DNA from: Candidatus Omnitrophota bacterium
GTDB taxonomy: Bacteria; Omnitrophota; Omnitrophia; Omnitrophales; Aquincolibacteriaceae
Assembly (NCBI GenBank): GCA_035352955.1
Contig: DAOPYQ010000005.1
Coordinates: 109,231-173,230 of the forward strand
Direction: 5' to 3'
DNA: 64,000 bases
Notes under the pieces: model-generated
The model's database searches: none
The model's input: the letters and a program-made list of their open reading frames with translations, nothing else
What the model was told of the DNA's origin: nothing
Translations under genes and position numbers: made by a program
Part shown: in pieces, positions 2,296 to 33,437 of the stretch
Position numbering within the stretch: the first letter of the stretch is position 1
How the letters are laid out: the number at the start of each line of letters is the position of its first letter

Positions 2296-2528
2296 GGCGG
2301 GTATTCTAACCGAGCAACGCACATCGCGCAACGAACAACGCAAACGCCTCGGGGTCACACCTCATTTTTTGCGAAGGTACGACCCCGATTTTAGGGGGTT
2401 TACGCGGAAGTGGCGGTCTGTCGCTCAGCCGCGGCAATGCGCTCAAGAAAAGCCGCGACGATGGCAATGCCCTGCCCAACCCGAAATGCGGCCGAGGCAG
2501 ACAGGCCAGGCAGGGCTTACCGTATTTT

Positions 2529-11500: not shown

Positions 11501-14500
11501 CGCCCGTTTTCCTGCGAGATGTCCCGTAATTATCTTGCAGGGTTTCAAACACGAACGCCGCATTGGCTCCCTTGTAATCCCGGCAACGGTCGAAGAAGAT
11601 ATTCACGAGCTCTTCCCAGGTCAGCACTCCCGTCTTCTCCTTCTTTTTCCGTCCCTCCTCCATCGCCGTACGCGCTGCTTGATCGATCATCTTCTCGATC
11701 TCAAAAGAGACCGCCCCGTTTCCAACCGCGGAGGTTGGAAATGGTTCCCGCATCTCGGATCGGACGTGGTCATCAGGACCACGCCGAAGCTGTGCCGACG
11801 CAATAGGCGTCGGTGCGGAGCGCTTAAGATCCAGGATGTTCAAACGGTTGATCGTCATTCCAAAACGAAGATCCGTACTCTTTCTAACGGAGACCTCAAC
11901 TCCGCCTCGCGCGGCCAACCGGGTGATCTCACCAATGGCTGTTTCATCTTTCACCGCAAGATTGGAGAGGATCATGGTCGCCCGGTCCTTCATCGTATCG
12001 GTGATCTTTTTGATAAATGCCGCTTTCTGACTCTCCGGCACCGCGTCAAAAACATTGAGCAGCACATAGAAGCTATACGCGTTTTCGGGCAATTCTTCCT
12101 TTTCGAGAGAACGGAGCGTATCCGTAAAATGAATCCGATCGCCCACAAGGTCCTGACCAAAACGTCTTTGAATTCTTTCGACCGTCATCCGGTTCATCAA
12201 CTTGAGAACCTGGACATGGGAGGGATTCGGCTGGTTGATATCGACATGACTTTGATTCAAAGCGAACGGCGTCACGAATGCGTCTTCTACGCTGATCCCG
12301 ACCGCCAGCACGCGGTCTTCCGGCCCGGGACGAAGCGAATCGATGAACTCCGCAGCGCGAACCGCCTCTTCCGGCATCGATAGCTCGCGATAAACTTGCC
12401 CCGCCGTCATTTCACTCATCCCCCGCCGTTCCGCGCGATCATCCTCACCCACTTCGGAGACCGGGTCTCCGAAGCGGTCTCGGGCGCGGAGGACCGACTC
12501 GATCCCCTCATCGAGTTCGCGGACCTCCATGGCGAGAAGGTTTCTCTTGTGCTTCACGGCATCCTTCCTCCGATAGAAGTCCCTGCCCCATTTTCCGCGG
12601 AAAAAAACGCTTGCGTCGGAAATCGCGGAGCCCCGGTCCTTAAAAACACGCCGCAGAAAATCCATGTAGGGATCCTCCCCGGGACGATCCGCCCATCGGC
12701 TGAGAATCCGGAGGCTCGTTTTGTAAACGGGCAGCGGATTTTTTAGCGCGATCTCCAGCGCGGTCACAAGCATCCGTCCAAGCAGTTCCCCCGCCGCCTG
12801 TTTCCGCGGGCGATCGGTCTCCGCAGCGGCCACTTTGTCGGCATCCCGCACGAGGATCGAAACGATCCAGCTAAAAAGACCGGCGTCCCCGACCGAAAGG
12901 AAGAACCGGGCCACAAACCAGAAATTGCGCCGGATCTCCGGATCATCGAGATGCCCCATGATCACCTGGACCGGCGCGTAGATCCGCCGGGCATCTTTCG
13001 CGAACCGTCCGGCCTCGCCATACTTCTTCTTCCGCCTGCCCTCGGCATCTTTCTGGCGCTTCAAAAACTCCCGTATCACGGCAACGGCCTCATCCTTCCC
13101 GGTTTGGGCCACCCGCATAAACCCCTTGATCTCGTCGAAATATTTTTTATATTCCGGAGAACTGGCTTTTTTGTCGAGATCTACTTCGGCCTCATCTTCC
13201 TTCGAGAGCCCCTTTTCGCCGCGCCCTGTGCTGCGGCGCTCCGCGCGGTTAGCCACGGCTTCGCGCACCGAAGGCGGCATGATCGCCAGAAGCCCGAAAA
13301 CAACATCCTTCCCGTCGAATGAAAGAATCAACTGCCCGGGATCCCTCAGCCATCCGAAAGCCGCTCTGTCATCGTCAAGAGAAAGGTAAACAAATTCGAA
13401 AAAAAGGATCTTCAGGTCGTCCGAGGCGGCGGGACGGGTAGCCAGAGCGACGTCAAACGCCCGTCCCCGCGCCGCGGCATGGGACATCTCGCGATCCAGA
13501 AAGCGAAAGCGGCAATATTTCACGTGATAAACCTTCAGAAGCTCCAGAAGCCCTTCCGCAAGAGCGAACCTCTTTTCGATCTCGGCCAACGCCCGGTCGA
13601 TCTTTTCCCGGTTCCGGCGGACCGCCACAACAGGCCCCCGTTCCTTATCATGGGACAAGCGCACCAATTCTCTCGCAAGATCGTGGATCGGGACAATCTC
13701 GGGCTCGGAGATAAGCCAGGAAAATGAGGAAAGCCACCATGCGTTGGTCGAAAACTGCTGGTACTTTTTCTCCTCTGAAAGTTCCTGCCGCAGAAGATCG
13801 ATCTTCTCGCGGATCTCCTTGTTTCTCTTGGCGGCAAGTTCCAGCATGTCCCTCGCCCGGACCGACCTCACGCGTTCGACGATCCAGCGAACGTCCGGAT
13901 GTTCTTTCATCCGGGCAAATTCCGTTTCATAAACATGAAGTTGCTTCCGGAACAGATTCCACCAGGTTTCCGACTGCCACGGTTTTTGGGTCGGCCCGCG
14001 CCACACGAACCACGGCTTTTTCGGGTCCTTCTCATGAGCGTACTCCGCGACGCCCGCCTGAAGCGGCACGTAAAGAACATTGCGAAGTTCGCTTCCGGAT
14101 CTTTTTTCCATCGCCGGACGCCCCGCACCCGGTCCCTGCTGGCGAAGCTCGTGACGGCCCCTCACATTCCTCCAGGGATCATGAACCGGCGTCTTGGCTG
14201 CCAAAGCCCGCGCTCTCAGGAACTGATCCATACCGGACCAGGACTCGGGACGAATTTCCCCGAGCAATCCTCGCAGTTTTCCTAAAAACGGTTTCGGATA
14301 AACTTCGACGATATCGGGAATAGACGGATTTTCTGTCGCAAAAAGACGCCCGGGAGAGTCGCCGCTAAAAAAAACGCATCGATACCCCCCGATATCTCCG
14401 TAAGGCTTGACCTCAACCTTGACCCTCGTTTGGCCGCTGGCGGGATCTTTGAAAAAAACGTGCCACACAGCGTCATCCCTGGTTTCAGGCATCCTTGCAT

Positions 14501-17500
14501 CGTTCACCTCAAGCTTCATGCCCTTGGCGGACGCCACTTTTTCAAACTCCATACGGGGTTCCTTGGGCAAAGGTTTATTGCCAAGCTGGTGTTCCCACTC
14601 TTTTCTCCTATTCACCCGGTCCTCCCAGGCCCGATCAAGCGCGAACAAGACCACGAAAAACGAGGAAAGAAACGATACCTGCCGCACAAATTCCAGCGTG
14701 ACGTGCGGAAGCCTGAAATGCCCTTCCATGTAGACCCAAAAGGGATACCCGAACATGTACAACGCCGCAATGCCGCCGAGGATCAGGCAGGACTTGATCC
14801 AGATACTGCCGGTGCGCGAAGACGCACTAACGGAACCCTCCGGACCTCCCTGCCGAAGTTCCATGCGAGCAAGCGTTCCGAACATCGCGTTAACCTTCTT
14901 TTCCGCATCCCTGGCGTTCTCATAATCCGGCGACGGGACCAATAGCTGGGCCTGCAGGGCCTTTTTGATGATGGTCTCGACGTAGGAAGGCTCCCCTTTT
15001 TTGGAGCTAAACACCATTCGGAAATAATCTTTCGAAACCTGCCGCGGAAGCCCCCGTCTCCGGCCATCCGATCCGAACACGTCTTTGATATCGGAAACCG
15101 GAAAAGCCCTCCCGCTCAAAAGGATCGCCAGTTCATTGAGAAAATCGTCCCACCGGCGAAGGCGAAGGAGGGCAAGGACAAAAACAAGTTGTTGCCCGGA
15201 GATCATCTGGGTGTCCGGAGTGTAAAGCTGGATCCCTGTCAGAGCCCGCGCCATCCACCCAAGGACTTCTCCCGTTTGCGCATGAAGCCCCATCGCTTCC
15301 AGACGGAGCAGGAGCGCCCGGCATTTATTGAACGCATTCCAATAGGCGAGCGATCTTTCCTCGACACCAACCACCGCCGCCGCCATCCGCAGATCGCGTT
15401 CCGTCATCTCCAGTTCATCGATCACGCGTTTTCTCAGGGACTTGTAACGGAGGATGATCTGCTTTTTCATTATTTGGGCAAGATGGGCCCGGTAAACTTC
15501 CGCTTTCATCAACCCGGCGCTGTTTTTCTCGAATTCCTTGAAGAAATCAAGATTGATCTGCTGCCGCGCGGCTTCAGTCGCCTTAAAAATATAGTCCGGG
15601 TCCTTCCCGCGGTATCTTTCGAGCATCCGCCGGTGCTGGATCACCCATCGCTGTCCCGTGCGCAGCGAAACCGCGAGCTTTTTGATATCCTCCGGATTCT
15701 TTTCGTCCAAGGAATCCAGATAAGCGCTCGTATAATTGAACGCGTTGATCTGACGTTCGCTCTGAAGGACCCGGGCGACATTCCGTCCGGCATCCGCGAT
15801 AAAAAACGGCAGTGTCGCCTCACAAACCAGCACCACGGCATACTTGTCGAAATGCTCCATATCCGCCCGCAGTTCTTCATCGTGCAACTTGTCGGCCTGA
15901 GCTACCAGCAGATCGCGCGCCGCCCGGATCTTCCGGATCCAGGAAGGATCCATGGGAAGATTCGGATTTGTTTTATCCGCCATCGCATCATGCATGGCCT
16001 TGTATTTCGCGACCGCCGACGGACTCCCGAATGCAATCCCCTTATTGGCAAGGCGGCCCGTAGCCTCTGCGCGCGTATGGTAAGAAACATCCTTCCGCGC
16101 GATCTCAAGCGGAGGCTGGAGCGCCATGATCAAGGCATAGAACCTGGAAAAACAGACCTCCAGATCGGTGCTGAGAAAGAAGAGCATCAACCCGTAAAAG
16201 TCGGCGGAGGCCTTGGCCGTTCCCGGCCCCCGTTTGATCCCCACAAGAAGCTTGCCCAGCTGCGGGTCCCAATGGCCCAACCTCCGGCGCAACGATTCGA
16301 CGCCCTCTTTTTTAAGGATGTCCCTACAGAAATCAATGAAGGGCCCGGTCCCGCTAAAATCACCGGCGATGCGTTCGAAAAAAAGCTCGAAAAGCGGTTT
16401 GTAAAACACCTCCCCGTATAAAGAAGGATGGTCCATGATCACGGAAAGGAACGATTCTTCGCCCGAGGAACCGCCTTCTCTCAGGGAATTCTTGAAACGA
16501 AAAATAAAATTCCAAAGGTCCTCCGCCGCATGAACCGCCTTGGCCGTTTCATCGGGAAAGTGAACCGCGCCGTGAACATTTTCATAAGCCTGCAAGGTCT
16601 GCCGGAGATAAACGTCGATTTTTTCGATCAATCTTTTAATATCAAGGATTGCGGCCCGTTCCGTCCCGCCCCGGGAAAGATCTTCAAGAAAAGGCGCGAA
16701 TTCTTTTTTCACTTCCCCCCAGTCTTTCAAAAACCCCTTGAGATCCTCGATCCGGCTGTTCCGCAGAAAGAGCGTGAAAAAGATCGTGACATCCTGCAAC
16801 GACTCCCGGATCTTTAACGGATCACTGTTCCCCCGGGGCTTCAGATCACCCAAAAGCCTCGAAATCTCCTGGATCTGATCTTCAAGCCAGTCTAATTTCA
16901 TCTGCTCCGGGGATTGATACTCTCGCCTTTCCTTCAGCCGACCGGAAGTCCGGACCTCCGCGCGGCTCTCTCTTCGGGACTCGCTTTCCGCCGCCTTTGC
17001 GTAGGCCACGGAAACTTCTTGGGCGGTAGGAAGCGGCCCCTGTTTCTTTTCATGATCCGTCTTTATCGAAACCAGGGCAGCCTCAAGCGCCTGAAACCTT
17101 TGCCACGCCTGACCGATCTTTTCGATGAAAGCGTTACGGTTGGCTTCCGCTTCAGGGGCTTCAAACAAGACCTCGTAAATAAAATATTCCGCCTGCTGAA
17201 CACGGTCGAGCGCCGTCTCCTTCGTCGCGCCCGCTCCGGGATGAGGCACATTCACGGGCGTATGGATCCCGTGCTTCGCAAGCGCCTCCGCGATTTCTCC
17301 GTGCGACTCCAGGATCTCCCGGATCGCTTCCCAGGCGATCAGCGAGATCCGGAGGTCCACGCCGTTCCTGGTCTGGGCATACTCCGACATCGATTCGCTC
17401 AGGATCGTGGCCGGACCCCGGACATTGTGCGATACCCATGCCTCCCAACTGACCGGTTCAACCGTTTGGTACGAAGTCCCGTCGAGTCTCTTTTTTGCGA

Positions 17501-20500
17501 CCTTGCCCCACACCGTTTCCCGGCTCAGCGGGGTCAACTCCGCGAGCGGGACAAAGACCGCCCCAAAGTCACCCAGGAACTTCTCAAAATCAAGATAAGC
17601 CTCGATCGCAGCCGCGATCTTGGGCCAGGCGTTATAAATATCGAGAACGGCTTGCTTGAATTTTTCATAGTCGTTCCCCGGAAACGCACGGTCGGAATTA
17701 AACGCGAGATTCATAAGGTACGGGGTCAGGTCCCCGTAAGGCACGATGTCGGTTTCGCGGTACTTCTGCAAAACGGAGGCGCGTGACCTGAAATCCAGAT
17801 TCAAAACGTCCCGGAGCCTGGGCTCAACCTCGGTCTGTTTCTTGCGGATCGCGTCAAAATCTTCCCGTATATCCGCAAGCGTCTGTGATTTTGTTTTGGG
17901 CGACAAATATTCCAGCTCCTGCAACGCATAAAAGATCCTGTTTGTCCGGCTCGAATAGGTCCCCTTCCCGTGTTCCCAAAAAAGATCTCCCACATCCGGG
18001 AAAAACACCTTGCCGTCTTTTTCGGAAAGAACATCCCCACGGATACCGCTCAGGGCGCGGATCCGTTTCATTAATTCCACAAGATAATCCCACGCGCCTG
18101 AGGCTCGTTTAAAAAGGTCCGGCTCGTTCCAGTCCGGTTCGAGAATGAGCTCCGCGGATCGAAGTTCAGCCCTGTCGAGATCCGGTTTTAGATTGCCCAA
18201 CTCGAAAGCTTTGCTTTCTCCGGTGGCCGGAAAGTTGACCGGGGTCTCTGGTCTCTGGTCTGCGGTCTTAGTTTTCAACCGGTTCATGTGATGATGAAGA
18301 GCGACGTCGAAACTCTGGCGGACGAGGCGAACGTTCTTTATCGCCCCAACGCCAGGATCCGTCGCCACAGCTGAGGCAAGCTCGTCTTCCAGAACTTTGC
18401 GAGTCCCTCTCACCGCATCCGCAAAATCATCCGCATAGGCTGCTCCGTCGATCTTCGCAAGTAATGCTGGAAGGGTTGCCGACGATTGAATCTTCGCAAA
18501 CAGCTCGCTCACCCTCGGATAGAGAAGCGCTCCTTTTTTATCCTTTTCCCTCGCAAGGGCCGAGATGTGTCTCTCCATCCAAACGGCGAACGGCCGGACG
18601 GCGGGTGAAATGGCGGCGTGCTCTTTCTTTACGGGAACGAACGCGAACGCCTCGACCTCGACAAGCCAGTTCGGCCGGCACACGTCCCCGATAACATAAA
18701 TGATGGGAATATCGGGGAATTTCTTATCCACCGCTTCCTGGATAGCCGCCGCATCTTCGGGCCGTTTGATATAGACGCGCAGCTGCGGGATATCCTTGAG
18801 GTCGCCCATGCGCTGCGTGAGCATCATCCGCACGCTGTCGATCATGTAGAGGGTTTGACGGACCGGATCGCCGATGTACATCTCGGCCTGGCCCTTGGTC
18901 GAGGCCGTGCCGGAGATCAGGACCATTTCGTAACCGGGAGTCACAACCGACATCGCACGCGACCAAAGCGGCGGCTTTTTGGTCTCAAGCGCCTTTTCCT
19001 GAACAACGATCGTATATTCATCGGGGTTCATCTGCCGTGCGCTTTCAAGGCGGAGCGCGTGGACGTTGCTTTTTTTTGCGACAAAGGCGAGCGCCTCCAT
19101 CACGATAGAACCGCTCTTGTCACGTAGCGTCCCGATCCCGGTCGACGCGGGAGGTTTGCCCAGATTTCCACCTTTGATCAGCCCTTCCCCGAACGGGATC
19201 GATTTCCCGTTCATCGAGGTCATAAAGTAATCGTAGCGCGGATTATTGATTCCCCACTGGTAGTTCCATTTTCCCTCGGCATCGTAATCAACGATATGGT
19301 CCTGGTAGAACCAGGTGCGGAGCACTTGCCGGTAATCGAGAACAAAATCGGGGCCGACTTTATCAAGTTGCTTCAGCTTGGCTTCGGCTTTCTTCAATTC
19401 AAGGTAGGTCTTTTCGAGGACATTCCAACCGCGGTCGTAAGTTTTGGTGATCGAAGGATCGGGTGTGATGCCGCCGACATAAACCTGGAACAGATCCGCA
19501 TCCTCGAGGATCGCGCTGTGTTCGCTGATGCGGAGCACCTGGTTCGGCTCAGGGACATATCGACTTTCGTCATCCTGAGCGGAGCGAAGGATCTGAGATT
19601 CTTCACTCTCTCCACGTCGGGGCTCAGAATGACGGGACGAACCCATCGCCACGATCTCGACTGTGAACATGCTTCCGTCAGCAGGAGTTTGTTCGAGATA
19701 CGTCGTGACCGGAGGCTCGACGCCCGTGCCGTAATATTCCCGCAGGGCTTTTTTGATCTTTTCGCGGTCCGCGTCCGTGATATCCCCGAACGAGATCACC
19801 TGTTTGAAGATGTCATCCTTCCTGATCTTCTGTTCCGCGATCAAACGGTCAAGATGCCCGATAACGCTTGCGATCTGTTCCTCCGCCGTCTTCCCTTCCG
19901 ACGGCATCACGGAGAAAAACACCTGCCGTTTCCCGTTCCCGAGTTCCACCGCCTTGGCGCGCGGCTCCATTTTGAGAAGTTCTTCATTGATCGCCTCACG
20001 GGACAGCAGAACCTCAGAGGCCACCCCGGTCGCGATCGCTGCGCCGGAAGACCGGACAGGTTCGCTGTTTCGAATTTCCGCCCGAGCCGGGATATCCTGC
20101 CGGGCAAGATCGTCGAGAGTCGGGACCACCGGAAGATCCTTTTTTTCGAAGCCCTGTGAAAAAGCACTCTGAAGGTCCTGTTGTGTCTTCGGGTCAAGCG
20201 AAAGGTCCTTCGGGAATCCGTGACGGACAAGGAAACGCGCGAGCCTCACCGCGTCAGCGTAAACCTTCCGGTAGTCCTGCGCCACGAGATGCTTCCCGGA
20301 TAAAATGGGCGTCAGAGAAAGCTTCTGTCCCGACTCGCCCGGAGAGACGATCCCCGCCAGGACGCCAAACCCATACTTGGGCGTTTTAATATCGGTATGG
20401 AGTCTGATCTTGTCGATCAGCGCGTGCTCCGGCCGGTACATCTGCGGGGAAGTTCCGATCGTAAGCGTGTCCCCCGCCACCCGCGCATTAAAAATAAATG

Positions 20501-23500
20501 TTCCGTTCCCGGCGGTCATCCCCCCGAGCGTCTTTTGGATCGCCTCGTCCCCCACAAGAGCTTTGTCCTGGTCATAGACCCGGACCTTCCGGAATCCGCC
20601 CCGAAGATCTGCGCTCCGCCACAGGCCGGGGATCTGCAGGAAAAGAGAGATCACGGCATCCACTTTGCTCGCGGGAGTCACCGTACTTTCCTCGGGAGAT
20701 CCGATCCAGACATCCACGACCTCGACAACTTTTCTTCCAAATTTTCGCAGCCGGCTAAGAAGGTCCGTATCAAACGCAAAATCGACCGTGAAATCCGGGT
20801 CCAGGTTCCAGTCCTCGTCGACGGGTTGGATCTCGTCGAGGGCTTCGCGCGTGAACGCCTTGAATCCCTGCTGAGTGTCACGAATACGCCAGAAACCGAG
20901 AAGGACCTTCGTCAGCATGTTATAGATAAAACTGCCTCGCCGTTCCTCATCAAGGCGCCCGTAAACGATCGCTCCCTTGCGCCACCGCGAACCGATGGCG
21001 GCATCCGCTTCCCCGGAAGCAAGCTTCTCCAGCAAAAGCCCGGATTCCGCGAGCGACACGGCACGATCCATGTCCGTGAATATGAAATACTGTTTTAACG
21101 CCTTCAGGATTTCCATGAGCTTGCGGAACGCAAGGACAATCCCGCTCCCTTTTTTTCCGCCGATACCGTCGTTCTGGTCCTTATTCACGAACCAGACCTG
21201 CACCTGCCCGGACTTCAGCTTCTGGGGAAACATGTCCTTGAGGATCTCGAGCGCGACCTGGCCGGAGCTCTTTTCGCTCTTGATCTTTGGCTGCGGGACG
21301 TCCCCTTCAAGTTTTTTACTCTGGAGGAATCCGAGAACTTTTTTAAGCAACGGCCGGACCCAAAAAGTCAGGAAGGCTTTGTACCACTTCAAGAGAAAAG
21401 AGCCTTCTTTTCTCTCCGGCAAAAGGTTGAACCTCAGTTCGTCCGCCGGATTGCTCAGATCCATGGAGCGCTCGCCGTCATCGGCCAGCAAAAGAACGTA
21501 CCGGACATTCGAATTGACGGAAAAAAGTTCGTCAAGCTCCCGGATCTTCCAGACAAGCGCGTCCTCGCCGTTCGGATTCTTTTCCGCCGAGAACGGCCGC
21601 AGGCGGTTCTGTTCCCCGTACATCGAAACGGCAATGCCGACCTCGATGGGGTCGCCGGTGCGCGGCAAGCGGTAAACCGCCAGGAAAGACCGGATCAGCC
21701 GTTCGGCTTCCGGCAAAAGATCATGGAGCTCGGCGTCCTGCGCGAGCATGCCGTCCAGCATCGCGGCGCTCTCATCAGCACGGGGACCTTTGAGAAGCGT
21801 CGAAAGCGCGGCCGAGATCACCGCCATGCGGTCTCTGGCCTTCTTCGTATCAAGCGGCCCGAGCCGGTCGGCGTGCCAATTCATCCTGAGGAAAAGCCCT
21901 GAGGCCAGCCGGTCGACCTCCCCAAGATAGCCGTCGCGCAGCGGGTTGTCCTTGATCCCGTTCTCGAGCATCTGCGAATCGGGCATGGCTTTTTCCATCA
22001 AATCAAGCGCGCCCTTCAAAATCGCGCGGGGCCGTTCGCCCTTGGCAAGGATTTCCACTTCTTCGTCATACCGGATCCCGAGCGACGCAAGCTGATTTGC
22101 GGAAGACATCATTTTCATCCCGCTGTCCCCTTTCCGGATAAAAAGATGGACCCCGGTTTTCGCCGTTATTTCCGACGCCAGATCGGCAAGGATCTTGCTC
22201 GGCCGGATATGGATATCATTTCCGTTCAAGACATGAAACGTCCGGCGCATCTCCGGCCAATTTTCTTCCAGGATCCCCCCGCCGAAAATGACCTGCGGAA
22301 ACCGGGGCGGGACCTCCGGCGTCCGGAGCTCGGAACGAGGGGTGACACGGAAAAACGTCTGGGGGGGGAATGTGAACCGGACCGTCGTCTTGTGCCCTCC
22401 GGTTCCCGGCGGCAAAAATTCCATTTTTCCGCCATGACCTTCGACCACGGCACGAACAAGGGCGATCCCTCCCCCATGAGATTTAAAACCAGCTCTCGGA
22501 AAAATGCCTTCTTTGACAGAATTCGGAACGATCGTAAATCGGCCCGCCGCGTCGATAACCTTGGAAATCCCCACGCCATCGTCATAAACTTCCCATAGGC
22601 CATCCCCATTTTCTGCTTTGCCCGCGCGAAATCCGATCAGACCCTGCTGACCGGCCTGAGCCTGGGCATTCAGCCCGTTGGCCGCCATCTCCCGAACGAT
22701 CCTGAGAGGCGTCCATTCACGGGTAAGCGCATCAGCTAAAATGATCTTCGCCATGGAATCTTCTTCCTCGTCCGGCAAAAGATCGGAAAGAGCTTTCCTC
22801 AGGCCGTCGTCAGACCATCTTTTTGTCCAAAAAACATTAAACTCCGTCTGGGTCTTCGCCACGAATTCATCGAGAAGTTTCGATAAACTTTCTTCCGTAT
22901 CCTGCAAGGTCGGCGCCGGCCGTGGCGATACCGTCTGATAGATCACTTCTTTCATTTCAACGGGGGGCTCTGCCTTTTTCCAGGGGACTTGCGGCCCGAG
23001 CTCTTCCAGTTTTGCTTCGACCTTTTCAAGAGATTGGAACGTAAACTTTTCTTGGGCACGGCCCTTCCCCTGCGTTGAAAGAACGAACTTTGTGCCCCAG
23101 AAGCCCCCGCGGGAAATGTCGATTTTGATCACAAACTCTTTTGCCGACCCCATCGACAACCGGAAAGGATCCTCGGGATTCCCTTTCTTCCTCTTCGTTT
23201 TGGCATCCTCGGGATCCTCCTGTTCACCGTCCCTCACCTTAGATTTTTCAATCGCGATTTCCTCGGGATCCTGCGAAGCTTTCCCCGTGAATTTAGCGAT
23301 ATGGGCATAATCAGGATGCACCGAAAGAAAAGAGAAAAGACCGGCCGCTTCGCTCTGGAACCCGGTGTTCAGCGTTATTTTGTAGACGTCCGTCAGCTGC
23401 CGGTCCGCCGCAGCGCCAAGCACGGAGCGAACGGATTCTTCATTCCCAAACCATTTCCAGAACCGCTTTGAGAGATCGGCTAGCGCTTCGGTCCACGAAA

Positions 23501-26500
23501 CCTCGGGCTGGGCCATTCCGGCCGAGAGGATCTTTTCAGTGCGGGCGCGATAATCTCTCATCATCTCCCGGCCCCGTGGCGTGTGCGCATAGACCTGTTC
23601 GGCCATCTCCATGGTAAGGATTTCGCCGATGATGTCGGCGATCCCCTCAAGCGACTCCTTCTCATGGGACCCTCTAACAAGGACTTTCACAATAGCCCCG
23701 GGGTCCGTGTTCAGATTAACCATTTCGGTGGTTTGTGCGATACCGATCTTTTTATGGGTCACCGGATCGACCAGCTGAACCTCGATGCCCGAAGGAGCGA
23801 ATACTGTTTCCCCAAGTTCTTTCAGCAGACCCGCCGCCGGCGGCATATGCCACCCCTCGGGCCCGACGGTAAAATCCCGCGCGATCTCGCGCTTTTCCGC
23901 GCGATCAGCCCCCGCCCCGGTTTCAAGACCCGGTTTTGACACGAGGGAATCTCGCTTTTCTTTCCGCGTATCCCAAAGATCTTTCGGCCAGAGTTTCAGA
24001 ACGCCCTCTTCCGGAGCCTCAAGGTAAAACCCGTCAGGCATCGTGGGCCAGACTTTTTCAGCCCCCACCATCCGGCGTAACAACCTGCTTACATCCTTCC
24101 TCGCAAAGTTGATCTTTCCGGACGTTCCCACTTGCAGGTTCACGGCCAGCGCCACCATGAGCCCCATCAATTGGGAAGTTTTAGTTTCACGGAAGCCGTA
24201 TAAACCCGCCTTTTCTCCGTTCTGGATCAGGAGCCGGTCGCGGGCGGTCCTCCATTTTTCTGAAAAAACGTCCAGACGCATGACGCTAATATACGGATGT
24301 CTTTCCGCTGCCGGCAACATCACAAGGGGCTTCCCCTCAAATTTCTTACGAAGCCCCGGCGGTAGCACAAGCACCGAATCCTTTGTGAGACGCACGAAAC
24401 CCTCCGTAGCCGGTGCGGCTTCCGGGAGCCGCTGAGACACCGCATCCGGGATCTCCTTGGAAACGGTTGTCTTCGCCGCCAACGATGCCGCTTCTAATTT
24501 TGCCGCAGCCTTCGGATCGATTTCACGGAGCCGGGCAATAAATTCCTCCCGGGTGCCGGGCTCCCCGAGCACCATCCATCCTAAAGCGATCTTTTCCTCA
24601 TCCGACAGCGGTCTCGACGCACGGACCTCCGAGCGGCCGAGCGCCCGGGGGTTTTTCACAGCGGCCAAAGCATTCCCCATCACCGTCTTTTCTTCGAACG
24701 GGACGCCCTGGATGAGGTCCCGGAAATCCCGGAAGAACTTCTGCCCGAGATGCATCATCGAGAACCGCGCGACCTTTCCGCGATAATCGCCGCCCAGGGC
24801 CCACGGCTCATAACGGATCGCGTTCTCGTCCAAAGCCCGTTCCGCCAGGCCGATATGCTTATCCGTCAGAAGCGTCAACGCCCGTCCGACGATCTCACCG
24901 GCCCCATCGTATTGGTAAGTCTTACGGAACTCGAGCCATTCGGTCTGGAGATCGTCCAGGTAACGGGCGTTCTCCGGGTCCGCCTCGAGACCTTTGAGAA
25001 GCGCGGGTCCATTCACATCGCTGACAGGATCACGGCGGTAACCTTTCCCATCGGGATCGCTCCATAATCCGATCCCCGTCCTTATGAACTCCTCTTTTCC
25101 GGTGCGCATGAGGATCTTCAAGGCTTCGGTATCCGTGATCGAAGCGATCCTGCCTTTTCCATCCTTCTTGAACGCCTTGGATTCAAGCCAAAGGAGATAC
25201 CCCTGATCAACGGGATTGGCCGCATAAAGGTTCAGCATCATCATCTCGCGGACGCCCGCGAAATAATCCCGGGGCAATGCCTTGAGGATTCCGAAGACCT
25301 TTTCGAACCTTTCACGGCCCTTCAAATAAGGAATGGCATCCACCGCGGCGCGAAGTTCTTCCGCAAGTCTGAAATAGAATTGCCCGCTTTTCAGGCTGTC
25401 TTGGCCATCTTCCAGGAGACGCGCGACAAGATCCATCGCTCTTTCATCGCCGAGTTCCGCGAGCGCGAGCAGTGCCGGTGGCATGATGGCCGCTTTGTTG
25501 CCGGCATGCCCGTTCAATTCGCTCCCGTCCCAATAAAGGACCGAACGCTGGTAATCCGCGTCAAAATCAACGGCTTTCCAGAGGACTTTCGTCGTCTTCG
25601 CATCCGAGATCCCGGAGATCCCAAGCGCCTCGATGGCTCTCGCCTTGATCCACCAATAGGTCGTCGCCTCCGGACCCGCTAGTTGCAGAAGCCGCTCATA
25701 GATGCGTTTGTCTTTTTTTGCCAGTTGACCGAGGCTTTTCGTGACCGTTTCGCCCAACTCGGCGAATGGCCGGTAAGCATCATCAAAACGCTGTTCTTTA
25801 TCCTGCGCGGCCCGCCATCCGGCGTTGGGGGAAAATCCGAGCAGCTCAAAGAGCCACGGCGCGTACTCCGCAAGCCCTTGCTCCCCCGCCATTTCGGCCG
25901 ACATCTTGATGAGCGGAATGGCCCATTGCACCGCCTGATCGCTGTAATAACTGCGAGAAAGCCCCTTCGGGATGATCTCAAACCAGTCGGAATCGAAGAC
26001 CCCGAACTTGTCCATGCCGTATTCCCTGGAAAGCGGCATGAAGGTCTCGATAATGAACTTCGCGACCTCCGGACGCGCCGGCATCAAAGCGCGGAGAGCG
26101 TAAAGGATCGGATCGCCATGGGCCTCGATGCTCGACATCTCCCGGCACATGAGAAGGAGCCGCATGAGCCGGAGGACCTCTTTGTAGATCTTCTGCCGGG
26201 GGACGGCGGGATTCAGACGCTCGGAGATCTTATCGAGATATTGTCCGAGACGGTTCATCCGGTTCAGGACCATCCGCTCAAGGCCCGCCTGTTTCGCGAT
26301 CTCTTTTTTGGGAAGATGCAGCGTAATGACCGTTCCGGGGACCAGCGTCTTGAAAACCCTGACGACTTGCGCGGAAAGAGGCATAAGTCCCGAGGCGCCC
26401 TCCAACAGCGCCCTTCCCCCCGGGGTCTCGCCTTCCGCTTTACGCGCGTCAAAGGCCTTGCGGCTTTCCCAGGAAATAATATATTTCTCGTGATTGGAAC

Positions 26501-29500
26501 TCCGGATAGCTTCTTCCACTTCGGCGGCCTCCCAAACCCCTGGCACGAACATGTCGATCAGGAACTCATCCTTCTTTTCACGCACGGAAAACTCCGCCTT
26601 ATTGGGAAAGGAATGGCTGACCGGGGAATAACGCTTGAAATAGATCGAGGCCAAGGCCGATACAAGCCCCTCGGTCAGATGGTAGTGGCCCACCGCTCCA
26701 AGCACCATGGTCAGGTCCGCGGATTCGGGGAACGGTCGGTGGACCTTCCCCCAAGTCGGTTCGATCTTGAGGATCCAGTCGAAGGGAGAGGCTTTCAGCG
26801 GGTGCGGATCCATGAAGTTATATTCAACATTCTGATGGAACTCATCGAACTGCTCGCGGAACTTTCTCCAGCAGTAGCCGAACGGGTCCCGCATGAACTC
26901 GTCGTATTCCGCGTACTCGGGATTATCGGGATCAAAAAAATCGTCAAACTCGGGGTTCCCCGTCGGATTGAAATCCGATGTACGCTTCCCCTTGTCGATA
27001 CCCTCACGGTCAAAACGCTCGCGGCGTTCCGGATCTCCCAGGATCTCGTAGGCGCGGGCGGCCTCCTTGAATTTTTCCGCGGCTTCGGCATCCCCGGGAT
27101 GCTTGTCCGGATGATACTGCATGGCTTTAGCACGATAGGCCCTCTTGATATCCGTTGCCGTCGCGTCCCTCGCGACCCCGAGGACCACGTAGGGGTCCCC
27201 CTCCCCGGTCCTCATCTCCGAACGGGCGGTCATGGGTTGGGCGTCGGCTTTCACGATGATGGCGCGGAAATCGTTGGAGTAAACTTTCACCGGTTCTTTA
27301 CTGGCAAAAAGCATTTCGTCCTGAAGAGGCTGCCCCAGCGCCTGCCGCGCCCGATCTTCCGAAGAAATAACTTTCTCGAATGCAAGTTTGGGAGGATGCC
27401 TGAGACTATAGCGATACAACGAAAGTTCCGGCATTCCGAAAACCACCGTCCCCCCTTCACGAAAATTAATCCCGTGATGATAGATCCGGGAAGCGAATCC
27501 TAAACTGATAAGGACAGGTTTGTGCCAGAGGTCTACAAGATCACCTCCGGTAGCTATGATCGCATGGTTCGGATCGACCCCATACCGGCGAAGGAACGCG
27601 TCCACGTCCAGCGCTCTGAACTTAAGCCTCTCGATGGCCTCGCCCTTAATGCTCTCCAGGTCGGAGGTATTGACCGGACCCACGATCCTTCCCGTAAAAC
27701 CCTCCGGCTTGGTACGCCCGATCGAGATCGGGATCCGGCAAAGAACATCTTCTTCCCGGAACTCCGGAAGAGGCTGATAGGTTTTTGAAAAATTCCCCGT
27801 GATCGGCCGGGATTGAACGACGGACAACTCCTCGTCTTTAAAGGCGAATTCCACATCCACGGGAAATCCGAGCGCCTCCTCGATCCCTACGACCACGGTC
27901 CTAAGTTTTTCGATCTCTTCCTTATTCAAAGGAGATAGATGTTTCGTCCTGTTCGCATCGACGATCGCAGACGTATGCTCGTCCCAAGTCTTGTTGATGA
28001 GTTCACGGATTGTCTGATCGGCGAACGAACCTTCTATTCGCAGATCCAATCCGCGCCATTGCATGCCCGCCCGGGGATTATGATTCCGGTCGTAACCTTG
28101 ATAGACCGCTTCGACCTTGCCCGTCTGGCGATCAAGATCGATAATGACATTCCTGCTTCCTGAAACCGCGTACCGTCCCTCGCCCACAACTGCCTCAATC
28201 GCCACATGCCCTTCCAGGTTCGAGAACGCGATCCCGGATTTTTCCGCCCAGATGTAATCCTGAAGAAAAACCGAATAAGCGACATTCTGGTACCGGTCTG
28301 TCACGGTATCGTGGGGCGACTGGAGGCTCGCATGCAAAGCCCAGAACTCCCGTGAGGGATCCGTCTCCCGGCTGATCCCGAAACCCGCCCAGCTCTGTTC
28401 AAAAGAGTCTTCCCCCTGGCGAGAAGAACGCCAGATCCTGAGCCTTCCCAACATCCGGGTCTTTTCGGCCCATGCCTGCCTAAGCTCTAAGGGAAGACTC
28501 TTGTAAAAGAGAAAATTCTCTACAGCATTTATAAAAGCAAGTTCCGCCTGATCAAAGGCAATACCGGATAGCAAGAGATCCTTTTCGTTCTTGCTATTTT
28601 TATACCTGAGAATATCCGGCGTTTCCCGGAGCCCGACAAAGAAATCTGTCCACTCCGCTTCCGTCCCGAAATTCAGGAAGGGTCTAAGATCGGTTTGTAA
28701 GACCCCCCGGATGGCTGAGCGAATTTTAGATTCATCCCCGGCAAGCTCACCGAAGACATCAGCAAAAAGAATGGAGGTCAAGTTTGGAACACCATAGAAT
28801 CCATCCTTCCTCGCTTTTTCAATAAGCCCCTGATTGATCTCTCTTTGTAGTTTTGAAAAGATGGCTCCAGGATTCATGCTTTTGTAACGTTCGTCGATCT
28901 CCCGTAGCAATTTTTCTTCAAAGAGCACGAACTTCGGGATCTTGAAACCGAGTTTTTCCGGAAGTCCCAGTTCCTGAAGAATCAAAAGCCATGCGGCCTT
29001 ACCGCCCCACAGTTTATTCAGTTCCGCGAACCGCGCCTTCACCGCTTCCGGACTCGCCCCTTCTCTCAGTTCCGAACGCGCGGATTCGGTCGATAGCGGA
29101 ATGGCGGCCAACATCGCGATCGTCCGAGTCCCGGGTTTTCCGGGAATATCTCTGCCGAGCCATCTGAGGTTTTCAAGCGTGGCGGCATCCAAAAGGACAG
29201 CCTCCGGAAAACCGTTTTCGATCAATACCCGCGCCACCGTGATCAGCTGGTCCCGGAACTGTGTTTTCTCGGCTTCATTCAAATCGGCACGTAACTTATA
29301 AACTATCGTCATGTTCTGGTCGGGCGCCGATGAGACGAACCCGAAAAGCGTTTTCCAGGAAGAACGTGGATCCCTGATATCAGAATGGGCTCCCACCCCA
29401 TTCATGATCGTCCCAAGATGTAAAACCCCTTCTTCGATCGCAACGTTAAAAAGAAGGCCTCCTCGCGCCACCTCGGCAACCTTGGCGCGAAATTCCGTCG

Positions 29501-32500
29501 CCGTTGCCGGTTTTCCATTGACCACAAAACCATTGACCGAAGACAACCGAAGGCCTTTTTGATCACATGCCGCGCGAATGCGTTCCTGGATACCGGGCAT
29601 CGCCTGTTCGATCTTGGCCCGGATCCCGGCATAAGGCTCGGCCGGCGGCGCGGGATAATCTTTCTCCGTATCAAAATCAAGGCCCGTGCTTCCGAGGATC
29701 AGCTGGATTTTTTTCGGATCGATCCGGAAAGTCTTCTGGATAAATTCACCGTGATGCCGTTGGGCGACCAAAATGAGGTCCGCCCAATCGACAAGTTCCT
29801 GGTCGATCTGTCGGCCTTCGCGGTTACGAAGAACGGGATGCCGTTCCCAGACCGGCGCTCCCAGCCCGAGCCTCGGCCGGACAAGCTGTGCGAGCGTCAT
29901 CTCATCCGCCCGGATCCCGGCGGAACGAACGCTGACTTTATCTTTAAGCTCCGCGGGCAACGCCTGCGCGATCAGATGCGCCGCCAGCGGCGACCGCTCC
30001 CGGTTCGCGTTGCAGACCGTGAGAACATTCAACTTTCCTTTCACGGTTGCGGCTAACGCTTTTTCGATCTCTCCTAATCGAACCTTATTCGTTAACTTCG
30101 CCGGAGTGATCCGCTCTCGCCCGTCTTTTGAATCCCTCCGCAACTCGGAACGGAGGGAGATGCCTTCTGCCCTGGCGATCGTTCTAATCCGGGCATGCAT
30201 AGCCTCCACATCCTTGGACGGCGGAGCCCCATGCTTCTTGCGGGCCCGAGACCTCGGGGCAACAAACCATTCGCCATAATCGGAAAGATCATAAGTCTGT
30301 TCGCGGAGGATCTCCTCCCCAAGGGAGAGAAGCTTCCACCAGGCGCCATCAAACGTTCTCTGAAAAAAATCGACGGCCAAAATATCTTCCGGACTCGTCC
30401 CGGCCAGGATTTTCTGAAGTGTCTCAATCCCGAAAGCGGAAGCTGGGGCTGTAAAAAAATCGCTCTGCCTGAAATGTTCCCCGATCGAACGCGAGATCAA
30501 GGCGTAAACATTTCGCGAGTAATTATCCCCGGGATCATTAAAGGGGGTCCGCGCCACCTTCCCGTTATAATCCGCGATCAGGGCCGCGATCGCGGGAGGA
30601 TCTTCCGCGGCGGCAAGAAAAGCCCTGGCGGCATCCGTTTTCCCCTTTCCCTTCCTGGCCTCCTTGAGAGCCCCCTGAAAGGTCTTTTCGATCTTCCGGA
30701 ACCAGTCATAACGGGCAAAAAACCAGCGCACCGCAAAAATCCGGTGCTCTCTTTGAAGTTCCGCCGTCTTGGTTGCGTAACGCTCAAAAAGCGCTGCCGG
30801 ATTGTCAGCTCCCCCGACATTCAACTCTTCGATCCGCAAGGCCATATCGATCAGACGGGCGAAGGCATCCGGAGACACGTTGAAATCTCCGTCACTCCGG
30901 CCCGCGAACGGACTCAGGGCAAATTCTTTTAAACCGTCCGTGATCATCACGGTCTTCCGATCCTGCTGCTCGCTGTCGGCGCGGACGAAAATCCGTGTCT
31001 GATCGAGCTGAAGACCATAAAAACCGGCGACTTGCTTCCAAGCCTCATCTATTTTCCGGAACCAATGCGCAAGGGACTGCGTTGCTTTCAGAGCATCGGA
31101 TTGGACCATAAACTCATCGAAATCAGTACGGGAGAAAGACGCTCTCGCCTCCCTGCGCACATCGACCCGTTCAAGACTTCGCGGAAGGAAAACTTCTTTG
31201 GGGTTTAGGGGATAGGGTTTAGGGGATAGATCTGTTTTTGCCAAGGTTGCTTTTCTATACCCTATACCCTCCACCCTATCCGCCAAAAAGTTTTCAGGCA
31301 CGCGCGCGCCCTCCCACATCGGAACAGCATACGGCGTCTGGTTGGCCGGTTGGCCGAGGAGCTTCGCGATATGGGCTTCGCTCAATTGACCGTTCTTGCT
31401 GAGAAACTGGAGTTTCCCGATGAACCGCTCAAGTATGGCGCTCCACTTTTCTTTGAGACCCTGGAATTCGGGCGACTGTTCCGCCGCGCACTGATCGATG
31501 TAACGGGTATATTTTGCATGGTCCGCAACGCGGCCCGAGGCGGCAAGATCACGAATCACTTCGTCGCGCCACTCTTTCAGGACCGAGCCACGGGCCACGG
31601 GCCACGGGCCACGACTTGTTTGCACGTCCGTTGCCAGCTTATCGCTCGTGGCGCGAGCGAAGGCGTCATAAAGATCGATCCGGCCGTCGCGCGGGCGGAA
31701 ATATTTCGCCCAGGAAACCTTGCCTCGCATGTGATCGAGATAGCGGCCGTCCTGCGGGACTTCTTTCATCGCGGGAGACACGACCGCGTACGGAATGCCT
31801 TGTGCTTTTAACTTTGACGCGAGGCCTGAGGTGTGGAAGCCGCCGGCAACGAAAATAACGGGGGAAGGATGGAGGATGAAGGATGGAGCTTTCACAAAAC
31901 TTTCGAGCTTGTTTAAAAAAACGGCTTCGCGATTCAGCGCAATTTTGTAGAAATCGAAAAAATCCGCCACGCGCGGTGAGCCTAAAAGAGCATTCATCTT
32001 TTGACTCATTTCACGGATCTCTTGATTTTTCACTCCATCCGCCATCCGCCATCCGCCATCCGGCTGAAAAGACTGCCATTCCTCCCTGCTCAATTCAAAC
32101 TTTATCAGCTTCTCCATGAGCCGTAAGCGCTCGTCCAATTCCGAAACAGCTTTCGCCTCCGCCGTCGTGAAAAGATTGGCCCGCACGGTTGCGAGAAACG
32201 CGTCGAATTCTTTCATGAAGGCCGGGCCTCTGAGATTTACGAGCTTTTCGTGGCGGGCAATTACCTGGGCCAATTGGGGAGAAATTTTGAAAGAACCGTC
32301 ATCCTGAGGCAAAGCCGAAGGATCTCTTTTTTGAGATTCTTCGCCCTTCGGGCTCAGAATGACGGCCTCATTTTTTAAAAACAGCGTTAGCTCGTACGCC
32401 AGCGCGCCTTTACTCATCCGGCCGGTGCGGGAGGCCTGCTTGAGGGCATTGAGCTTTGCCTTTGCGGGTCCGTCCTTCACGGCTTTTTCCGTCTGAATCG

Positions 32501-33437
32501 CCAATGCTTTGATCTCCCGATCGAGTTCCGGGCTCAACCCCTTCTTTTCCTGCTCGATCGTCATGAACAACGCGTTGAGCGTTGCGCCTTGCGCGTTGCG
32601 CCCGGAATACCCCGAAAGATATTCCAGAAAAGCCGTCAACTTGGCGGGATCTGCCTGCCATTCCGAAAACCGCCGGTCGAATTCTAACGCCTCCGCAGAA
32701 TAATATTTTTCCTTCAGCTTTTGCAGTTCCTCTTTGAATTTTGAACTTTGAACATTGAACTCGGCCTGTCGCCCAAGACCGAAAAGGAACGCATGAACGC
32801 CCTCCTCGTAAAGCCTCCAGTCCTCGATCCCGACGAATTCGGCTTTCCCCTGCATGAGCACGCTCGCCGCGGCCACCCCGGAAAGTTCGCCGGTCGCGAG
32901 ATAATCGTCAAAGACCGCCTTGCGTTTTTCCGCGTCGGGGAACATCCGGAAAAGCGTCGGGTCAAGCTTCCCTTCCGCGCCTTCCAAAGCGACGGTCCCG
33001 ACGCCGTATTTTTCCTGGAAATATTCGATCAGCTTCGCGAGGGAGCGTTGGGCGTCCGGGATCGAATGGGCATCTTGAATTAAAATTACAAACTTCCCGG
33101 ATGAAGGAGGAAGGATGACGGATGACGAAAAACCGCTCTTAAATTTACCATCATTTGACATCCTCTTTCCGACATCCATTTCCTGGATGGTTCCCAGTTC
33201 GGGAGGGACGACAAGCTCCTGCACATTTCCGCGTGAAGCGGAGGCCGAGGCAAGAAGGCTGGTGTCGTTCCCTCCCTGAACATGGGAGACATTGATCGAT
33301 TGGGCGAGTCCTTGTGCGGGAAAAGAAAGCAGGTCCGAGCAGAGAAAAGCCATCACCGTGAGCACACTAATGGCCCTTATTTTAAACGAAAAGCTGGAAG
33401 GAAAACTCCTCTTGTGTAGAGATGTTTTTGGGTTCAT
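2529..33437 (-). CDS. giant 10,302-aa secreted or membrane multi-domain protein (mosaic of enzymatic domains)
   Basis: Single uninterrupted ORF of 30,909 bp in the six-frame track. N-terminus [47 protein letters not shown] is a Sec-type signal peptide. Several domains are recognisable from sequence and are listed as separate features. Domain positions were checked against the DNA at five anchor points and the residue count closes exactly at 10,302. Stop TAA at 2529-2531. Confidence 0.85.
5457..5534 (-). other. internal twin-arginine (Tat)-like signal motif (aa 9302-9327), directly after an RSEMRE linker
   Basis: [37 protein letters not shown] has RRxFL, then an Ala-rich hydrophobic stretch, then an AxA-like site. 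This is a textbook Tat leader architecture, but it lies ~9,300 residues into the ORF. Confidence 0.35.
7386..7436. repeat. 51-bp intragenic repeat copy B, encoding linker [17 protein letters not shown] (aa 8668-8684)
   Basis: See copy A. Further peptide-level copies of RSEMRE/RSEMRT start at aa 2072 (before the J-domain), 7585, 9115 and 9291, at roughly nt 27210-27227, 10668-10685, 6078-6131 and 5550-5567. Confidence 0.8.
9603..9950 (-). other. MutS domain-V-like ABC ATPase (aa ~7830-7945)
   Basis: [45 protein letters not shown]...[38 protein letters not shown] aligns with the MutS Walker A region (ITGPNMGGKSTYMRQ.AL..LMA.IGSYVPA) and the THYFEL region. The Walker B / signature segment is degenerate. 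DNA check: LALLGPNAS at ~9880-9917. Confidence 0.55.
11745..11795. repeat. 51-bp intragenic repeat copy A, encoding linker [17 protein letters not shown] (aa 7215-7231)
   Basis: Plus strand catctcggatcggacgtggtcatcaggaccacgccgaagctgtgccgacgc versus copy B catttcagatcggacgtggtcgtcagaaccacgccgaagctgtgccgacgc. About 46 of 51 nt are identical, while the flanking DNA is unrelated. Confidence 0.8.
14628..14807 (-). other. internal transmembrane hairpin (two predicted TM helices, aa ~6211-6270)
   Basis: [27 protein letters not shown] and [26 protein letters not shown] are two ~22-residue hydrophobic stretches inside an otherwise hydrophilic protein. Confidence 0.5.
18633..19940 (-). other. two RidA/YjgF (endoribonuclease L-PSP)-like domains (aa ~4501-4599 and ~4830-4934)
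   Basis: C-terminal signatures ...[51 protein letters not shown] and ...[53 protein letters not shown] resemble the RidA PAR..V.V..LP....VEIE.IA motif. Confidence 0.45.
20688..21650 (-). other. family-2 glycosyltransferase (DPM1/GtrB-like) domain with an internal insertion (aa ~3930-4250)
   Basis: [17 protein letters not shown]...[16 protein letters not shown]...[14 protein letters not shown]...DAAIGSRW gives the typical GT2 fold signatures (DDGS-like and DxD motifs). Confidence 0.6.
21993..22244 (-). other. HPr-like phosphocarrier domain (aa ~3732-3815), directly C-terminal to the GHKL ATPase
   Basis: [81 protein letters not shown] aligns with E. coli HPr ([27 protein letters not shown]...KSASAKSLFKLQTLGL..G..V.ISAEGEDEQKAVEHLVKLM). 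The active-site His (H15 equivalent, in DIHIRPS) and the Ser46-region serines are present. Confidence 0.6.
22353..22760 (-). other. GHKL / HATPase_c histidine-kinase-like ATPase domain (aa ~3560-3695)
   Basis: [27 protein letters not shown]...[38 protein letters not shown] shows the G1 (DxGxG), G2 (GGxGLGL-like) and G3 (GTG) boxes. Checked on DNA at 22380-22382. Confidence 0.65.
26997..27197 (-). other. DnaJ J-domain (aa 2081-2147), preceded by linker ARSEMRT
   Basis: [66 protein letters not shown] carries the HPD motif and aligns with E. coli DnaJ residues 4-68. DNA check: gacccctacgtg at 27186-27197. Confidence 0.8.
27408..28226 (-). other. PEP-utilising / pyruvate phosphate dikinase N-terminal (PPDK_N) ATP-grasp-like domain (aa ~1738-2010)
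   Basis: [21 protein letters not shown] resembles the PPDK_N / PEP synthase nucleotide-binding motif (DIEWAI..GKLYILQARPET). The segment after it, [17 protein letters not shown]...[13 protein letters not shown], weakly resembles a mobile domain but lacks the canonical GGxTSHAAI phospho-His motif. Confidence 0.5.
29538..30035 (-). other. low-molecular-weight protein tyrosine phosphatase domain (giant protein aa ~1135-1300)
   Basis: P-loop [21 protein letters not shown] matches the LMW-PTP CX5R(S/T) signature V-C-x-x-N-x-x-R-S. The C codon was checked on the DNA at 30012-30014. Confidence 0.7.
31588..31613. repeat. heptanucleotide tandem repeat (ccacggg x3.7) inside the 5' part of the giant CDS
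   Basis: Plus strand gccacgggccacgggccacgggccacg. The sense strand encodes RGPWPVARG (aa ~608-616). The 21-nt core keeps the frame, but a +/-1 unit change would shift it. Confidence 0.6.
32035..32062. repeat. heptanucleotide tandem repeat (ccatccg x4) inside the 5' part of the giant CDS
   Basis: Plus strand ccatccgccatccgccatccgccatccgg. The sense strand ggatggcggatggcggatggcggatgga encodes [10 protein letters not shown] (aa ~459-468). Confidence 0.6.
33303..33437 (-). other. predicted Sec signal peptide of giant protein (aa 1-45)
   Basis: Basic n-region (KR), hydrophobic core [12 protein letters not shown], then AQGLA|QS, which looks like a signal-peptidase site. Confidence 0.55.

Follow-up and report, generated by a model that had tools for sequence, protein, structure and literature searches.

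A full-length J-domain opening a motif-bounded cassette within a 10,302-residue protein of Omnitrophota

J-proteins and giant proteins closest to the locus

Class C (type III) J-proteins, such as Escherichia coli DjlA and Mycoplasma TopJ, join a canonical J-domain to an unrelated client or localisation region, and the element described here is composed in the same way. It lies in 64,000 nucleotides (nt) of Candidatus Omnitrophota bacterium (contig DAOPYQ010000005.1, positions 109,231 to 173,230 of the forward strand; hereafter the window), within a giant open reading frame (ORF) that runs uninterrupted over 10,302 codons on the minus strand (2529..33437), between uvrC upstream and a metH-like gene downstream. 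Features of the giant protein are given by residue (aa) and by window position, always on the minus strand. Its J-domain, at aa 2081-2143 (27009..27197), belongs to an internal cassette of the 10,302-aa ORF and not to a separate gene, and in this it departs from the class C J-proteins. TopJ is the nearest analogue in layout (N-terminal J-domain, acidic and proline-rich stretch, long C-terminal region), but the match holds only at the level of the J-domain plus linker: the cassette scores 77 bits with the TopJ profile of NCBIfam (profile positions 6-95) against a cut-off of 300, and 24 bits against 162 for DjlA. TopJ serves the assembly of a very large attachment structure.

Class A and class B DnaJ proteins (DnaJ, CbpA, DNAJB1/Sis1) have J-domains 47-67% identical to that of the cassette, and the D/F-rich segment that follows it aligns with their G/F regions. 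Assignment of the cassette as a class A DnaJ was rejected, given that TIGR02349 reaches 86.6 bits against a cut-off of 377.2, over positions 3-91 only, with no match to the zinc finger (PF00684) or the DnaJ C-terminal domain (PF01556), and class B is dismissed with it. Secreted J-domain effectors (HopI1; the exported Plasmodium Hsp40s) are alike in that J-domain and export signal occur in one protein, in an organism presumed to live on other cells; the logic proposed for them is co-option of a foreign Hsp70. HopI1 of Pseudomonas syringae is reportedly a type III substrate of ~50 kDa whose J-domain is C-terminal, and is said to act on plant Hsp70, whereas the signal of the window protein is Sec-like, its J-domain is internal and delivery is conjecture.

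Giant proteins are known from the same phylum, the 'Archaeovorins' among them (bioRxiv 10.1101/2023.11.21.568195, 10.64898/2026.06.07.730766). The window protein shares with them the size class of >10,000 aa and a mosaic of divergent enzyme domains including pyruvate-phosphate-dikinase-type and HATPase_c domains; it fits their class with a signal peptide plus transmembrane (TM) segments and presents the same localisation paradox. Archaeovorins have numerous TM helices and divergent SecA_DEAD/SecA preprotein-binding domains (bioRxiv 10.1101/2023.11.21.568195). The window protein was rejected as Archaeovorin-type, with no SecA family match at E<=0.1 in any segment and ~4 hydrophobic segments versus many. 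West-Roberts et al. 2023 (bioRxiv 10.1101/2023.11.21.568195) count among the open questions whether such proteins act as a single chain or are cut up and which face of the membrane their enzyme-like domains occupy, and name missing cleavage-point information as a limitation. The main text of the two preprints mentions none of the subjects treated below (boundary motif, linkers, polyproteins, cysteine content, DnaJ/J-domains), and one supplement to this literature holds no DnaJ entry. As a comparison of working principle only, multi-effector toxins of the MARTX type and viral polyproteins also carry shuffled cassettes on one chain with short linkers as possible processing sites; unlike MARTX, the window protein has no recognised RTX repeats, cysteine-protease domain, type I signal or protease.

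The J-domain and its cassette

The preliminary description of this DNA had flagged 26997-27227, which on the minus strand corresponds to aa 2071-2147 of the giant ORF, as a canonical HPD J-domain, a claim that failure against the profile hidden Markov model would have overturned. The claim held: PF00226 is matched over its whole length (1-63/63) with 82.1 bits (E 3e-23) in the full-protein scan and with 84.1 bits when the module is scanned alone, three-fold above the gathering cut-off of 27.8, and the HPD tripeptide is intact (aa 2109-2111, 27105-27113, codons CAT CCG GAC). Matches at E<1e-6 were returned for 55 solved J-domains in the PDB, E. coli DnaJ (5nro_B/1xbl) included. A gapless alignment gives 47% identity to the J-domain of E. 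coli DnaJ and 62% to that of an Omnitrophota DnaJ. In the former, HPD aligns with H33-P34-D35, the basic helix II positions R22/K23/K26 of E. coli DnaJ read K/R/R, and F47/K48 are the same. Single-sequence AlphaFold2 (AF2) modelling placed helices at module residues 18-31, 41-58 and 60-76, at a pLDDT of only 65-74. When the J-domain with its flanks was searched against a protein database, only ordinary DnaJ proteins were returned, every one through the J-domain; the taxonomy of the nearest DnaJ J-domains was uninformative, and the domain is of the ordinary bacterial class A type. At the level of sequence, the segment is confirmed to encode a genuine full-length J-domain with the determinants of Hsp70 interaction.

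The J-domain is the N-terminal part of a cassette of ~860 aa that continues with a D/F-rich, G/F-like linker (aa 2144-2200, 26838..27008) and a helical, HEAT-like body (aa 2201-2934, 24636..26837, with the HEAT-like repeat region at aa 2564-2629). An RSEMR pentapeptide (aa 2072-2076, 27210..27224) marks the upstream edge and an RSEVR pentapeptide (aa 2935-2939, 24621..24635) the downstream edge. Between them the J-domain takes residues 5-67 of the inter-motif segment, beginning four residues after RSEMR.

Both edges became visible through L001, a contig of Omnitrophica bacterium RIFOXYB12_FULL_50_7 and the sole relative of the J-domain flanks among species-representative genomes. Its ORF (3-10913) is a 3,637-aa fragment with a J-domain at the equivalent place (90.7 bits with PF00226, HPD kept). 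Only aa 2048-2928 of the 10,302 residues of the window protein align with it, at 57% identity, and the other domains of L001 (radical SAM, HATPase_c, methyltransferase, HATPase_c_2) differ from those of the window protein. The 23 aligned residues that precede RSEMR are 17% identical; identity then rises to 60% in the J-domain and 74% in the D/F-rich linker, the most conserved part of the cassette, and is 50-63% over the remaining ~730 residues; homology stops at aa 2928, 7 residues short of RSEVR. The L001 J-domain also begins four residues after a motif, here RAEVR, and motif-to-motif spacing is 863 residues in the window protein versus 877 in L001 (RAEVR to RSELR). On these alignments the J-domain is shown to start a discrete cassette exchanged between otherwise unrelated giant proteins. 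Conservation of the J-domain and linker in two giants that share nothing else implies that the cassette is selected as a whole.

Aligned by BLAST to class A DnaJ proteins, the cassette continues to match for 40-60 residues beyond the J-domain, within their G/F regions; the glycines of the G/F region are mostly replaced by Asp/Pro in the linker, which on its own found nothing significant among PDB sequences. The linker includes NPEFDDFF, an NPxFDxFF-like sequence in which we see a resemblance to helix V, the regulatory G/F element of class B J-proteins. For the helical body, HEAT_2 gives 26.3 bits in the window protein, below the cut-off of 27.7, and 31.4 bits in its L001 counterpart. The region after the J-domain, searched alone against 5.8 billion protein clusters, had no match, and the helical body found among 1.84 billion representatives 5 weak relatives through its HEAT region, none of them with a J-domain or the motif. 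A metagenome scan with the two-sequence cassette alignment settled on short D/F patterns and gave only unrelated small J-proteins. Class C J-proteins themselves are known; what is new is a J-protein found solely inside a giant gene, as a cassette with a motif at either edge.

The edges of the cassette belong to a recurrent motif, R-[SAT]-E-[MVLI]-R, with 15 copies in the giant protein against 0.25 ± 0.53 expected from residue shuffles. RSEMR is the commonest 5-mer of the protein (six copies), and permuted versions of the motif have zero copies. The motif is found at aa 1096, 1454, 2072, 2935, 3701, 4452, 5089, 5492, 7226, 7585, 8447, 8679, 9114, 9291 and 9880, with looser variants at 6191, 6428 and 9081. 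Its sites sit between recognised domains: before a low-molecular-weight phosphotyrosine phosphatase (LMW-PTP), before the J-domain, after the cassette, and between HATPase_c and HPr. The flanks are Pro-enriched 1.7-fold and have few aromatic residues. Codons vary from copy to copy, which argues for selection on the peptide and led us to reject a DNA-level repeat as the origin of the motif. With these 15 sites and the jump in L001 identity at RSEMR, the earlier suggestion that an RSEMRT linker marks the J-domain as a discrete cassette is supported.

L001 contains ten copies of the motif. The motif also follows the conserved N-terminal head, described below, in two head homologues (P0131 and P0133), and three copies lie in a 1,236-aa ORF of the related locus L013. 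A variant, R[ST]ETR/RAENR, takes its place in the related locus L012 (4 copies vs 0.6 expected), where two copies flank a membrane module. Zero copies occur in ~8,300 residues of neighbouring proteins. The R(S/T)ELR of PL7 alginate lyases was dismissed as coincidence, the motif here occupying 15 linker sites with no lyase domain detected. By position and recurrence, the motif is a candidate cleavage or recombination joint.

Compartment and partner of the J-domain

Given that Hsp70 and ATP are present together only in a cytoplasm, locating the J cassette would settle the topology of ~6,000 residues. We favour, at roughly even odds (about 0.5), a reading in which the cassette acts on the producer's own DnaK in the producer cytoplasm. 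The cassette would behave as a class C (type III) J-protein, binding ATP-bound bacterial DnaK through its HPD loop and basic helix II and setting off hydrolysis. Client choice would fall to the helical body; the likeliest client is the giant protein or its sister modules, and the purpose may be the folding, holding or assembly of a polypeptide needing many minutes of synthesis. DnaK as the partner, the client, the compartment and any cleavage are what we infer.

As judged from profiles and retained catalytic residues, every recognisable module of the giant protein is shown to be a cytoplasm-type, cofactor-dependent domain. These modules (LMW-PTP, PPDK_N, HATPase_c and HPr), taken together with the radical-SAM module of L001, need ATP, phosphoenolpyruvate (PEP) or S-adenosylmethionine, which argues against a periplasmic working site. 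A cytoplasmic-face reading has been given for similar regulatory and metabolic content in Omnitrophota long proteins (2026 preprint, bioRxiv 10.64898/2026.06.07.730766).

The signal-like start of the protein and the absence of a TM segment before the J-domain mean that action on the producer's DnaK would require one of two routes. In route (a), modules would be separated at the motifs, and the J-domain would then stand, as it does in free DnaJ proteins, close behind a new N-terminus, at a distance of four residues; in route (b), the J-domain would work on the nascent or pre-export chain. The preliminary description had offered a cytoplasm-facing topology of the segment or action on a foreign Hsp70 after delivery to another cell. 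Motif-site processing that releases the J cassette as a free N-terminal-J protein would be a third route beyond these two.

Several observations weigh against action on the producer's DnaK, among them the N-terminus (aa 1-46, 33300..33437), which on inspection shows all the sequence features of a cleavable Sec signal: an n-region charge of +5, a 12-residue hydrophobic core, Pro, then G-L-A|Q-S. The signal-like pattern with AXA is kept in the five closest head homologues, all from Omnitrophota, and two further ones show T-A-A/N-A-A at the site (pattern set P0131-P0137, 7 homologues). No TM-grade segment was found between aa 41 and ~5866 in a hydrophobicity scan and, by the positive-inside rule, an uncleaved chain would put the J-domain outside the cytoplasm. 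Cysteine is depleted four-fold, at 0.22% in the window protein, 0.22% in L001 and 0.21% in L012 versus 0.97% in 18 neighbouring genes, and the giants resemble in this the exported BamD-like protein, which has 0% cysteine. To these we add that no protease, cleavage product or DnaK gene was seen in the sequences available, and that the single-sequence AF2 model of the cassette body is all-helical at low confidence (pLDDT 41).

The cysteines kept in the giants include catalytic ones, namely C1142 of the LMW-PTP and the CxxxCxxC of the L001 radical-SAM module, which is intact and accounts for 3/8 cysteines of the L001 protein. About four candidate hydrophobic segments exist overall (the N-terminus, 6212-6235, 6246-6267 and 6845-6863), fewer than in shuffled sequence. 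Two of them form a hydrophobic hairpin (aa 6212-6235 plus 6246-6267, 14637..14804) within a 232-aa module bounded by the looser motif variants RMELR and RHELR, which agrees with the internal TM hairpin of the preliminary description. Its description of the protein as Sec-exported fares less evenly, for the N-terminus with conserved AXA and the cysteine depletion agree with it, but the recognisable modules are all cytoplasm-type. Sec export of the giant protein is plausible from the N-terminal pattern and is not the reading we favour.

Were the whole chain exported, the J fold might serve at the cell surface or in the periplasm without any Hsp70, either as a structural or binding element or as the decaying remnant of a captured dnaJ 5' end. 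Standard topology rules do place the J-domain outside the cytoplasm, and cysteine depletion is consistent with such a location. A remnant, though, would be expected to lose HPD first, and here both HPD and the basic helix II are intact, PF00226 scores three-fold above its cut-off, the other modules keep their catalytic residues, and the J-domain stays 60% identical across two lineages with a linker even more conserved. We consider an Hsp70-independent element very improbable.

A J-domain that is functional and nevertheless exported could be reconciled with the signal peptide and the cysteine depletion if it recruited DnaK in cis, kept ~6,000 residues unfolded and Sec-competent, and was then exported itself. 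In E. coli, DnaK/DnaJ can take over the export role of SecB. Such a holdase would still act on the producer's own DnaK, as a special case in which no cleavage takes place. Yet a single J-domain at aa 2081 would serve a 10,302-aa chain poorly, the enzyme modules with intact active sites would end up cofactor-less, and the large conserved helical body would be superfluous for a simple holdase tag, all of which leaves this option improbable.

The same signs of export allow one to speculate about an effector, taken out via Sec and a further route, whose modules enter prey or host and whose J cassette hijacks a foreign DnaK/Hsp70. By extension, modules might be released at R-S-E-x-R, with the LMW-PTP, HPr-like and ATPase modules as co-effectors. 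A signal-peptide-like N-terminus with conserved AXA, a J-domain with no preceding TM segment, and a chain-wide four-fold cysteine depletion that spares catalytic residues and fits unfolded translocation are all in line with delivery. So are the sharp cassette differences between syntenic or related giants, which are typical of effector repertoires, and the target cytoplasm would supply ATP to the cytoplasm-type enzymes. HopI1 and secreted LMW-PTPs are precedents. A predatory or parasitic life has moreover been discussed for Omnitrophota, and their giant proteins have been proposed to target prey, which we count in favour of delivery. On the other side, no secretion, translocation or pore-forming domain was recognised in the window protein (no RTX, CPD, autotransporter or SecA_DEAD matches), the radical-SAM module of L001 would need Fe-S loading after delivery, an ordinary bacterial class A J-domain hints at no foreign target, and export itself rests on a sequence pattern. 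A delivered effector is in our judgement unlikely, and action of the cassette on the producer's own DnaK stays the preferred reading.

Head, remaining modules and the meaning of the motif

Behind the signal-like N-terminus lies the conserved head of the giant protein (aa 47-1095, 30153..33299), recognised by invariant QDxH...EG...GGFH columns. Head homologues are 43-53% identical within Omnitrophota and 22-32% in more distant members including Elusimicrobia. The head has no Pfam match and no significant PDB fold match, and its AF2 model with alignment reaches a pLDDT of 68.6. A TIKI/ChaN/TraB-like hydrolase was considered and rejected, since 0/10 homologues match PF04187/PF01963 at E<=1 and ChaN (2g5g) comes at rank 33 with E 3.4 in Foldseek. 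The N-terminus of the head family is unusually well conserved (..AISLFTVIVFLCSDFLSFPxQALAQ). In two Elusimicrobia homologues the N-terminal helix is followed by an Arg-rich stretch, from which the reverse orientation would be predicted, and large ORFs follow one Elusimicrobia head homologue, one of them with PEP-utilizers_C.

What stands behind the head varies. L012 (10001-21383 of ENA ERZ27245625 k141_932371) carries a syntenic giant gene, in the order comEC...murJ-uvrC-giant, whose product (11323-21383) has nothing but the head (aa 1-707) in common with the window protein; a five-to-six-helix membrane module follows directly, and no J-domain occurs in the 3,353 residues available. P0133 has the layout head, RSELR, MarC membrane module. 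A polytopic membrane module directly after the head is thus found in L012, P0131 and P0133, whereas the window protein is without one for ~6,100 residues. Membrane modules at such differing positions are hard to reconcile with one fixed single-chain topology, and the sharing of the head alone with L012 means that cassette content is hypervariable at a fixed chromosomal site. These comparisons make the head the constant part of the protein, with exchangeable cassettes behind it.

The head region is split in gene calls of both related loci, into 460 + 9,158 aa in different frames with a 61-nt overlap in L012 (~11293-11389) and into 562 + 1,236 aa with a 32-nt overlap in L013 (~11658-11724). Homology to the window protein resumes in another frame in both and the break position differs between the two; the splits could be assembly errors or real frameshifts.

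Between the head and the J cassette lie the LMW-PTP module with an intact C-X5-R-S (aa 1138-1248, 29694..30026) and a PPDK_N module of the ATP-grasp type, as in PEP-utilising enzymes (aa 1637-1888, 27774..28529). Beyond the cassette follow a first, degenerate HPr-like domain (aa 3193-3270, 23628-23861) with 17.8 bits, below the cut-off, and then HATPase_c (aa 3579-3693), RSELR (aa 3701) and HPr (aa 3731-3815, His present), together at 21993..22703. This second HPr-like domain (21993-22247) scores 30-42 bits, and the two HPr-like domains with PPDK_N resemble a PEP-phosphotransfer theme. Farther along are an FkbO/chorismatase- or RidA-like domain (aa 4761-4931, 18645-19157; PDB 5ag3, E 5e-8) and a fragment of a MutS-type P-loop ATPase (aa ~7766-7886, 9777-10139) with 48.9 bits in NCBIfam, far below the cut-off. 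No internal repeats were found in the giant protein.

The gene itself has its first possible start at the ATG at 33437, preceded by GAGG and with an in-frame TAA 9 codons upstream, and its GC content is uniform. The same 10,302-aa gene is also called in JGI Ga0116247_10000081 (178-kb contig) and NCBI CAYPJP010000004.1 (160-kb contig of a metagenome-assembled genome). Upstream neighbours are ordinary chromosomal genes, namely comEC, a BamD/TPR protein, lptE, holA, murJ and uvrC; downstream stands the metH-like gene, with leuS, mnmA, rsmH and others further along. A minus-strand open frame of 787+ aa (1-2361) continues past the window start; by eye we take it to be methionine-synthase-like, its N-terminus resembling the homocysteine S-methyltransferase domain and its GDVHDIGKN the B12-binding motif. 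The 406-aa ORF at 1048-2268 on the plus strand was rejected as a gene, having no family match and looking like antisense noise over the metH-like gene. An AAA_22 ATPase (269 aa) with an overlapping 183-aa ORF (44230-45587, minus strand) lies between a GH35/GH42-type glycosidase and comEC. Among AAA_22 proteins are secretion-associated ExeA-like ATPases, and this one is possibly relevant to export.

The recurrence of R-[SA]-E-x-R along the chain allows us to speculate, tentatively and with more doubt than belief, that the giant ORF encodes a bacterial polyprotein, in effect the genes of an operon joined in a single frame, with these motifs as cut sites or recombination joints. If so, ~16-18 separate proteins would be released and sorted individually to different compartments: the signal-peptide head to the outside, the hairpin module to the membrane, and the enzyme modules together with an N-terminal-J co-chaperone to the cytoplasm. 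This would explain both the impossible-looking predicted topologies of Omnitrophota giants and their free cassette order, and the J cassette would be a dedicated DnaK recruiter that helps to fold or assemble the released set.

The over-represented motif at the edges of an exchanged cassette supplies candidate cleavage or recombination points that can be sought in proteomes and among the 916 long proteins catalogued in the 2026 preprint. Chaperone biology gains a J-protein whose only form is that of a cassette inside a giant gene, and the motif makes it possible to test whether such giant proteins are cleaved into separate parts.

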